Shown: in pieces, positions 6,970-7,965 of the stretch
Position numbering within the stretch: the stretch's first letter is position 1
How the letters are laid out: every line of letters begins with the position of its first letter
Assembly: GCF_049060185.1 (NCBI RefSeq)
Contig: NZ_JBMEQO010000002.1
Direction: 5' to 3' (one strand)
Length of the DNA: 64,000 bases
Source: Nannocystis pusilla
GTDB taxonomy: Bacteria; Myxococcota_A; Polyangia; Nannocystales; Nannocystaceae
Position numbers and translations under genes: made by a program
Notes under the pieces: model-generated
Told to the model about the DNA's origin: nothing
The model's input: the letters and a program-made list of their open reading frames with translations, nothing else
Databases searched by the model: none

Positions 6970-7965
6970 GTGGCCTCCCGCAAGCCCGCGCCCGCCGTCA
7001 CGGAGCCGACCATCCGTGTCCGCCGGATCCACCGCCGCGACCTCAACAAGGTGTGGGAGTTTCTCAAGCGCGTGTTCCGCTCGGTCAACCGCGAGACCGT
7101 CGAGTACCAGCGCCCCCGCACCAAGACGCGATTCCTCGAGATCTACGAGGAGGAGGGCATCGAGCAGCTGCTGTTCGAGATCCACGAGGGCGACGCCCCG
7201 GTGATCGTCGGCTACGCCGAGTGCGCCTACGAGGTCATCGGCTCCGACAATTGGATCAACGAGCGCTACTTCGAGAGCCGCGACATGCGCCCGCTGTTCG
7301 TCGAGGAGATCGCCATCCACCCCGACTTCCAGGGCCGCGGGATCGGCAGCTTCGTCATCGAGCAGCTCGAGCACCTCGCCCGCGTGCGCGGCTGCACTCA
7401 CCTCGTCCTCGAGGTCGCCGCCAACAACAAGCGCGCGCTCCAGTTCTACCGCGCCCGCAGCTTCTCCCAGATCGACGCCGCCATCTTCCTGGCCAAGAAG
7501 GTCGTCAGCGAGCCCGAGCTGCTGCCGCCCCGCACCCTCCGCAACAGCGGCCTCGAGGCGGCCCCGTCCGACCCGGCCGAGGCCGGGCCCGAGGCCGAGG
7601 AGGGCTCCGAGGACATGTCCGAAGCGACAGGTGCGGAAGCACCTGACCTCGAGGACATGCCCGAAGAGGCAGACGAGCCCGAGCCCGAACCAGCCCCCGG
7701 CCAAGCCCGCCCGCGCCCGCCGCTCGCGCCCCCGCAAGGCCTGACGGCACGACCCGGACGCCGAGCGCCTCGCTCGTCCGTCGCGCCGTGTCGCCGATCG
7801 CCGTCACCACGCGGCCGTCCGGCCCTGTCGCCGATCGCCGTCACCACGCGGCCGTCCGGCCCTGTCGCCGATCGCCGTCACCACGCGGCCGTCCGGCCGT
7901 GTCGCCGATCGCCGTCACCACGCGGCCGTCCGGCTGCCTGTGCGTCGCGTCCGCCGCTGTGTTAG
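6970..7965 (+). CDS. GNAT family N-acetyltransferase (catalytic domain about 6970-7560) followed by an acidic or disordered tail that reads through repeat DNA.
   Basis: Motifs IAIHPDFQGRGIGSFVIEQLEHLARVRGCTHLVLEVAANNKRALQFYRARSF form a GNAT acetyl-CoA fold. The tail EEGSEDMSEATGAEAPDLEDMPEEADEPEPEP and its downstream part are translations of the 14-bp array and the 37-bp tandem repeat. Confidence 0.7.
   Translation: MASRKPAPAVTEPTIRVRRIHRRDLNKVWEFLKRVFRSVNRETVEYQRPRTKTRFLEIYEEEGIEQLLFEIHEGDAPVIVGYAECAYEVIGSDNWINERYFESRDMRPLFVEEIAIHPDFQGRGIGSFVIEQLEHLARVRGCTHLVLEVAANNKRALQFYRARSFSQIDAAIFLAKKVVSEPELLPPRTLRNSGLEAAPSDPAEAGPEAEEGSEDMSEATGAEAPDLEDMPEEADEPEPEPAPGQARPRPPLAPPQGLTARPGRRAPRSSVAPCRRSPSPRGRPALSPIAVTTRPSGPVADRRHHAAVRPCRRSPSPRGRPAACASRPPLC
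7611..7665. repeat. 14-bp-phased array lying in-frame inside the GNAT tail.
   Basis: The four units are ggaCATGtccgaag, cgaCAGGtgcggaa, gcaCCTGacctcga and ggaCATGcccgaag. The period is exactly 14 bp, and 42 bp encodes the 14-aa stretch EDMSEATGAEAPDL. Confidence 0.7.
7789..7934. repeat. Perfect tandem direct repeat of a 37-bp unit TGTCGCCGATCGCCGTCACCACGCGGCCGTCCGGCCC, four copies.
   Basis: The copies lie at 7789-7825, 7826-7862, 7863-7899 (with a single c-to-g difference at the last base) and 7900-7934. The repeat sits just upstream of the ABC ATPase start at 7976. Because 37 is not a multiple of 3, each copy shifts the reading frame. Confidence 0.9.

Follow-up and report, generated by a model that had tools for sequence, protein, structure and literature searches.

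A tandem 37-bp repeat upstream of an ABC transporter operon in Nannocystis pusilla, likely a recent variable-number minisatellite

Is a run of near-identical repeats immediately upstream of an operon a regulatory device, or ordinary repeat variation in a spacer that tolerates it? The question is raised by a 64,000-nucleotide stretch of Nannocystis pusilla DNA (contig NZ_JBMEQO010000002.1; hereafter the window), in which four 37-bp units stand head to tail between a gene for a GNAT acetyltransferase and a predicted ATP-binding cassette (ABC) transporter operon. An earlier interpretation made from the nucleotides alone (the sequence-only reading) had proposed that this array might alter promoter spacing, shift an overlapping reading frame or serve as a protein-binding iteron array. 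The comparison with relatives reported here makes it likely that the array is a recent, lineage-specific variable-number tandem repeat (VNTR, or minisatellite) that arose by slippage in a weakly constrained spacer upstream of the promoter of the ABC operon.

Structure of the array and copy number in relatives

The segment 7789-7934 consists of four head-to-tail 37-bp copies of TGTCGCCGATCGCCGTCACCACGCGGCCGTCCGGCCC. In a strict 37-nt register, the copies beginning at 7789, 7826, 7863 and 7900 carry 0, 0, 1 and 2 mismatches to the unit, respectively; within the segment itself, where the last copy is cut to 35 nt, the single mismatch is G7899. In the native phase of the units, each copy is composed of a 2-nt junction and a 35-nt core. 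The four cores are identical and the junctions read CG (ancestral), CC, CC and CG along the array, the last and promoter-proximal copy keeping the ancestral right-hand junction. Identity between unit copies is 96-100%, and the copies abut directly with no CRISPR-like unique spacers between them. Tandem Repeats Finder (TRF) reported the array at 7778-7934 with period 37, 4.2 copies, 96% matches and a score of 286, the highest among its 122 rows for the window, making it the strongest tandem repeat there. The extra 0.2 copy corresponds to an imperfect 11-nt direct repeat, CCGTCGCGCCG, directly left of the array. The G+C content is 72% in the window and 78-80% locally at the array. A repeat of this quality is far beyond chance. 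Both direct reading and TRF agree with the original description of four 37-bp copies with one mismatch, and the distance from the array end to the GTG start of the ATPase gene (7976-7978), previously given as 40 bp, is 41 nt.

The copy number was compared across five orthologous loci from at least three lineages, namely two NCBI assemblies (RBIL2 and ILAH1, with one GNAT sequence) and three Logan assemblies (two further sequence types). In all five, the unit stands at the matching position in a single copy. Alignment of the window to a 6.3-Mb contig of Nannocystis sp. RBIL2 (JAPNJW010000001.1) shows collinearity over 16 kb at about 95% identity, and at the array the window differs from that contig by an insertion of exactly 111 bp, or 3x37. 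As judged from these alignments, the array is a lineage-specific expansion of +111 bp. The array copies diverge by about 1%, as against about 5% between the window strain and RBIL2, and the expansion is therefore placed after the split of the two strains.

No other copy of the 37-mer was found on either strand of the 64-kb window, even with up to 8 mismatches allowed. When a genome collection (one genome per species, 185,579 species) was scanned with a degenerate 22-nt core of the unit, 117 loci matched, and the remainder of the unit was matched at the RBIL2 locus only, the RBIL2 genome holding the unit once. The remaining 116 loci have at least 6 of 15 flanking positions mismatched, with one occurrence each in unrelated GC-rich taxa, and to judge from their flanks they are chance matches. 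A metagenome collection scanned with a 34-nt degenerate version of the unit gave no match. Because the unit is unmatched beyond one locus, it is taken as a locus-specific sequence; a dispersed element, also considered, was ruled out by the scans of the window, the genomes and the metagenomes, all of which point to a single locus.

The sequence-only reading had called for both of these comparisons, of copy number between strains and of the 37-mer with the rest of the genome. Copy number does differ, with four copies here and one in each of the five orthologous loci, and no larger dispersed element came to light, so neither an invariant array nor a part of a known larger element was found. Its description of a young, nearly perfect minisatellite is borne out by the near-identity of the copies and by their strain-dependent number (4 vs 1). 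A VNTR is recognized by a unit of at least 10 bp, by head-to-tail copies of high identity and by a strain-variable copy number at one locus, and the array displays each of these properties. A literature search on tandem repeats in Nannocystis returned nothing relevant.

The intergenic spacer and its predicted promoter

The open reading frame (ORF) that begins at 6970 runs, as written, across the array to a TAG at 7963-7965, and the array had accordingly been placed inside a 3' extension of the GNAT gene. The nearest GNAT homologue, from Nannocystis, is 97% identical, and the close homologues are 259-261 amino acids long with the C terminus ...PAKPARARRSRPRKA*. This tail is encoded in another frame of the window, which closes at TGA 7742-7744. 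Near 7692 the window has a 5-bp deletion relative to all close relatives, reading GAACC-----AGCCCCC where they have GAGCCCCCAGCGCCCCC; with the deletion, the protein loses its conserved basic C-terminal end and the reading frame continues across the array. The signal of G+C at third codon positions (GC3) of the GNAT frame fades past about 7600 and is flat over the array. Because the stop codon of the homologues is TGA 7742-7744 and the read-through needs the 5-bp deletion, the array is, on this comparison, intergenic and the long ORF to 7965 is the product of the deletion. The ORF as written thus does span the array, as had been stated, but all close homologues stop at the equivalent of TGA 7742-7744.

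Inside genes, positions 1-16137 of the window differ from RBIL2 by fourteen small indels, all of them deletions in the window (thirteen of 1-2 bp and the one of 5 bp). About half are under-calls of C runs (CCCCC>CCCC), and the RBIL2 versions of the broken genes are intact. The sites include 782, 920, 5861, 8193, 10677, 11424, 13689, 14008 and 15195, and the indels break amidohydrolase, beta-helix, ABC ATPase, MFS and NMT1 genes. By this comparison the window assembly carries systematic small-indel (homopolymer) errors, a signature that means apparent pseudogenes in the window are not to be trusted. The frameshift at about 8193 in the ATPase gene, a CCCCC>CCCC change relative to RBIL2, is probably an assembly error. 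The GNAT extension may be one as well; its 5-bp deletion is no simple homopolymer error. The idea that copy-number change would shift an overlapping frame falls with the ORF on which it was built, which is owed to a deletion in an assembly rich in indel errors. The locus serves as a warning in this respect, in that the GNAT "extension" and the ATPase "frameshift" of the window are probably not biological.

Scans of 6800-9100 for consensus sigma-70 promoters and intrinsic terminators found nothing, but since shuffled sequences also gave about zero, they are uninformative at this G+C content. Phylogenetic footprinting was used in place of the consensus promoter scan. The GNAT-to-ATPase spacer measures 32 nt in L211, 77 in L127, 94 in L126, 111 in L005, 112 in L003, 120 in RBIL2, 223 in L208, 231 in the window and 415 in L133 (L numbers denote loci of relatives); the comparison leaves out L123, L124 and L209, which are P0004/P0005 loci with another downstream gene, and L210, which ends at the GNAT stop. 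The sole block conserved in all aligned spacers is TGTG(T/C)TAG(C/G)GT, followed by 6-7 nt and then GTG. Its TAGCGT at 7963-7968 is the only TANNNT hexamer on either strand of the spacer and lies 7 nt before the GTG, ahead of which there is no purine-rich ribosome-binding sequence. A putative extended -10 element 6-7 nt before GTG, without a Shine-Dalgarno sequence, recurs in 8 lineages and fits a leaderless mRNA. The conservation suggests a sigma-A-type promoter that probably gives a leaderless mRNA from or near G7976. For myxobacteria, promoters of this type have been proposed to yield leaderless transcripts (PMC12754779). The comparative footprint in this way yields a promoter model for the ABC operon, consisting of an extended -10 and a leaderless GTG.

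Relative to the start codon the array spans about -42 to -187, and its end is 28 nt upstream of the predicted -10 hexamer. Because the array lies upstream of the predicted -10 and the proximal copy keeps the ancestral junction, a change in copy number leaves both the -10-to-start and the -35/-10 geometry of the predicted promoter unchanged. This speaks against the proposed variation of promoter spacing, as the conserved block at 7958-7968 and the GTG are both downstream of the array and additional DNA appears only upstream of about -42. The counterpart of the unit in other spacers has changed in L003 and L005 and can no longer be aligned in L126 and L127. It is absent from the 32-nt spacer of L211, a lineage that therefore does without the unit.

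In the longest spacer (L133:2338-2752), where the -10 block and the GTG are both preserved, there is also a long inverted repeat (GGGCCGGGCATGCGGGGCGTCGCCCA ... TGGGCGACGCCCCGCATGCCCGGCCC), which may be an inserted palindromic element.

Origin of the array and rival explanations

Imperfect direct repeats already exist in the single-copy spacer of RBIL2. CCGTCGCGCCG and CCGTCCGGCTG are offset by 37 nt and agree at 8 of 11 positions; CGCCGAGCGCC and CGCCGATCGCC are offset by 33 nt and agree at 10 of 11, the best value among offsets 20-60. An array with the latter period exists in the orthologous 223-nt spacer of a metagenome contig (L208:887-1109; JGI metagenome 3300063132), whose GNAT is 95% identical. 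It is formed by about 4 more diverged copies of a 33-bp unit, GCCTCGCTCGTCCGTCGCGCGGTGTCGCCGAGC, with 89% matches and a 10-bp internal duplication. The 33-bp unit overlaps the 37-bp unit of the window by only 11 nt and, as far as the sequences tell, the two expansions are independent. Both periods, 37 and 33, coincide with pre-existing direct repeats, as expected if arrays are seeded by slipped-strand mispairing or unequal recombination.

On these grounds slippage is probably the mechanism. The imperfect 11-nt direct repeat bracketing a 37-bp piece of the spacer probably supplied the microhomology for the first event, in which slipped-strand mispairing or unequal recombination would have doubled this piece; later expansion would have brought it to four copies. 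The G>C junction change common to the two inner copies implies at least two copy-number events with a substitution between them, or gene conversion. The outcome would be 111 bp of duplicate DNA added upstream of a core promoter that is itself unchanged, and for that reason the array is most likely neutral; at the utmost it would modify transcription mildly.

The array is not alone of its kind. In two other spacers, too, the window is separated from RBIL2 by a repeat-sized indel (+51 bp at 8919 and -60 bp at 15303). All tandem repeats of the window with a period that is not a multiple of 3 (37, 43, 55, 58) are in stretches without a coding GC3 signal, and those with a multiple-of-3 period are in genes. 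Non-coding repeats of this sort are common in this genome, and the array is the clearest example. If it is an ordinary minisatellite, its meaning is mainly practical, as a clean polymorphic VNTR by which Nannocystis strains can be distinguished.

Several observations weigh against a minisatellite without function. The expansions in L208 and in the window bring the spacer to near-equal lengths (223 and 231 nt), and the core TGTCGCCGAnCGCC is multiplied in each; the like lengths and the common core could reflect selection rather than a shared mutational bias. Promoter-proximal repeats upstream of leaderless genes change expression in Mycobacterium tuberculosis (PMC12817950). Furthermore, a single consensus, from an assembly with many small indel errors, is the basis of the exact copy number, and neutrality is itself inferred.

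The best surviving alternative, a doubtful one, is a promoter-proximal contingency locus, in which frequent changes in copy number would tune transcription of the ABC importer operon. Changes of this kind could shift upstream promoter-contact or activator DNA (at -42 to -76) or multiply it, or they could shield the promoter from GNAT read-through. In favour are the short distance of about 41 nt between the end of the array and a probably leaderless start downstream, a copy number that differs between lineages, CG/CC/CC/CG junctions that imply repeated copy-number events, and the published precedent in M. tuberculosis, another GC-rich bacterium (PMC12817950). The main hint comes from L208, where this spacer was expanded independently to a like length. 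However, the unit has no TANNNT hexamer on either strand, and with the only such -10-like hexamer outside the array, promoters are not multiplied as they are in M. tuberculosis. The unit region is moreover unconserved, being absent in L211, and like non-coding tandem repeats are common in this genome. The bolder claim that the GNAT-ABC spacer of the Nannocystis clade is a selected contingency hot spot, where overlapping units of 37 and 33 bp have repeatedly been expanded to about 225-230 nt and tune a leaderless importer operon, is considered unlikely.

That the array is an assembly artefact, inflated or mis-resolved from a lower or different true copy number, is improbable. The window assembly is error-prone, given its fourteen small in-gene deletions relative to RBIL2, but the errors seen are small deletions and include no tandem duplications. 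Assemblers tend to collapse tandem repeats and not to expand them, as was likewise noted for M. tuberculosis (PMC12817950). The copies also are not all identical (CG/CC/CC/CG), unlike a simple graph loop, and a comparable natural expansion is present in an independent short-read metagenome contig, that of L208.

Very improbable is a multiplied protein-binding site of the operator or iteron type, with the dyad TGTCGCCGATCGCCGTCA in each unit bound by a dimeric regulator and four sites acting cooperatively. The dyad, the best in the unit, is an imperfect one of 18 bp with 7 of 9 pairs, centred on CGATCG and present in every unit; a gene for an HxlR-family regulator lies 2 kb downstream, and TGTCGCCGAnCGCC is multiplied in both independent arrays. 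A dyad of equal quality, though, occurs in about 22% of random 37-nt stretches of the window, the motif is no more frequent in the rest of the window than expected by chance, and it is disrupted in the close relatives L003 and L005. A spacing of 37 bp (3.5 helical turns) would also place successive sites on opposite faces of the helix. An operator function was rejected because dyad statistics and motif recurrence are both at chance level. The partial palindrome GCCGTCACCACGCGGC pointed out earlier is indeed present in the unit, but its arms are only 4 bp long and even the best dyad is no better than chance. As for an iteron array, there is no rep gene nearby, no AT-rich region and no plasmid context at the locus, which shows chromosomal collinearity; together with a non-recurrent motif and a chance-level dyad, this disposes of the iteron proposal. 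A Dam/GATC role was also discarded: CGATCG is in each unit, yet GATC occurs 9 times per kb in the window and the four sites follow from the duplication. At the RNA level, Rfam at gathering thresholds found nothing in the spacer (the one match in the window is a tRNA at 34481-34551), and the fold of 7746-7990 is no more stable than shuffled sequences (z = 0.02).

A coding array, either as a real C-terminal extension of GNAT or as a 63-amino acid ORF at 7788-7979, with the protein altered by copy number, is scarcely credible: both ORFs cross the array as written, but close homologues end in ...PAKPARARRSRPRKA*, which is the window's other frame to TGA 7742-7744, the read-through hinges on the 5-bp deletion, GC3 is flat across the array, a 37-nt period passes through all three frames and one-copy relatives cannot encode the same peptide.

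Neighbouring genes, other repeats and known systems

The coordinates of the array and its surroundings are collected in the table.

Table. Features of the GNAT-ABC transporter locus in window coordinates
Feature	Position	Strand	Basis or remark
GNAT acetyltransferase gene	6970..7744	+	conserved stop TGA 7742-7744 from homologues
GNAT-to-ATPase intergenic spacer	7745..7975	+	231 nt; 120 nt in RBIL2; 32-415 nt elsewhere
Imperfect direct repeat CCGTCGCGCCG	7778..7788	.	8/11 match to unit end (CCGTCCGGC..) 37 nt downstream
Tandem array, four 37-bp units	7789..7934	.	sequence and TRF; relatives with one copy
Native-phase unit 1	7787-7823		CG + core
Native-phase unit 2	7824-7860		CC + core
Native-phase unit 3	7861-7897		CC + core
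Native-phase unit 4	7898-7934		CG + core
Conserved block TGTGTTAGCGT	7958..7968	+	all orthologous spacers; fits extended -10 (TRTGn + TANNNT)
ABC transporter ATP-binding protein, NitT/TauT type	7976..8781	+	GTG start, no Shine-Dalgarno sequence, probably leaderless
ABC transporter permease (BPD_transp_1), operon gene 2	8995..9783	+	family match; collinearity with RBIL2

The transporter belongs to the nitrate/sulfonate/taurine (NitT/TauT) class, with every NCBIfam match below the curated cut-off. The HxlR-family regulator gene downstream of the permease is convergent and 2 kb from the array. In the more distant relative L126, the genes for GNAT, ATPase, permease and an NMT1 binding protein are contiguous, the NMT1 gene directly following the permease. 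In the window (9857-12900) and in RBIL2, genes for the HxlR regulator, an MFS transporter and an aldo/keto reductase stand between permease and NMT1 gene, apparently as an insertion into the operon. The ATPase-permease spacer (8782-8994) is C/T-rich, contains a period-58 repeat at 8867-8992 (2.1 copies) and is 51 bp longer than in RBIL2 (+51 at 8919). At 8749-8827 there is a period-14 repeat, CCTGTCCCTTCGCA, in 5.6 copies.

Other repeats of the window include two non-coding minisatellites, one at 47486-47626 (period 55, 2.6 copies, 87% matches, score 212) and one at 1068-1154 (period 43, 1.9 copies). A hairpin motif, (C/A)TGTCC-N4-GGACA(G/T), gave 51 matches on both strands, at about 30 sites, vs 1.25 expected from shuffled sequences. 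The sites include 14313-14328, 15215-15230, 15260-15275, 15308-15323, 21709-21724, 22798-22813, 45455-45470 and 48001-48016. Spacers hold many of them, as do other tandem repeats (period 45 at 15205-15322; 8749-8827; 17362, 20791 and 51044). At 15205-15322 a period-45/23 tandem repeat holds the CTGTCC-N4-GGACA hairpin, and RBIL2 is 60 bp longer here. The motif looks like a genome-wide palindrome of the repetitive extragenic (REP-like), terminator-like or operator kind.

With regard to known systems, plasmid and phage iterons are repeats of about 17-22 bp, usually on one helix face, beside a rep gene and an AT-rich unwinding element. The array resembles them as a set of direct repeats in non-coding DNA, and is unlike them in its 37-bp unit and in its neighbours, GNAT and an ABC transporter. 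The phase-variable simple sequence repeats (SSRs) of promoters, such as the TA repeats of Haemophilus influenzae hifA/hifB and the tracts of Neisseria porA, opc and nadA, have units of 1-7 nt and act via -35/-10 spacing or a regulator site. Like the array, they lie near a promoter and can be lengthened or shortened by slippage. Here, in contrast, the unit is 37 nt, it lies wholly upstream of about -42, and core promoter spacing is predicted to be unaffected. Mycobacterial interspersed repetitive units (MIRU), as reported by Supply et al. in 1997 and 2000, are tandem units of the 40-100-bp class in operon spacers at about 40 loci per genome. Both they and the array are tandem units in intergenic spacers with a strain-polymorphic copy number; MIRU, however, are a dispersed family, whereas the unit described here is confined to one locus.

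The closest comparison is with the promoter tandem repeats of M. tuberculosis, which have 54-58-bp units 12-29 bp upstream of the leaderless lpdA (VNTR3690) and cysG (QUB15) genes, with a 57-bp repeat in the dop promoter (PMC12817950). These repeats are strain-polymorphic, with within-clone variation of 1e-2 to 1e-3 per chromosome (PMC12817950). Both systems occur in GC-rich genomes as a few head-to-tail copies of locus-specific units of tens of bp, located tens of bp upstream of a leaderless gene (probably so in Nannocystis), and in both the strain-variable copy number is attributed to slippage or recombination. Within-population switching and effects on expression have been shown for the M. 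tuberculosis repeats. The M. tuberculosis unit carries the promoter, so that additional copies multiply promoters, whereas the -10-like element in the window is outside and downstream of the 37-bp units. If the array were a contingency locus after all, promoter-proximal phase variation by tandem repeats would extend from M. tuberculosis to the myxobacteria, with the myxobacterial counterpart acting via upstream DNA and not through multiplication of the promoter.

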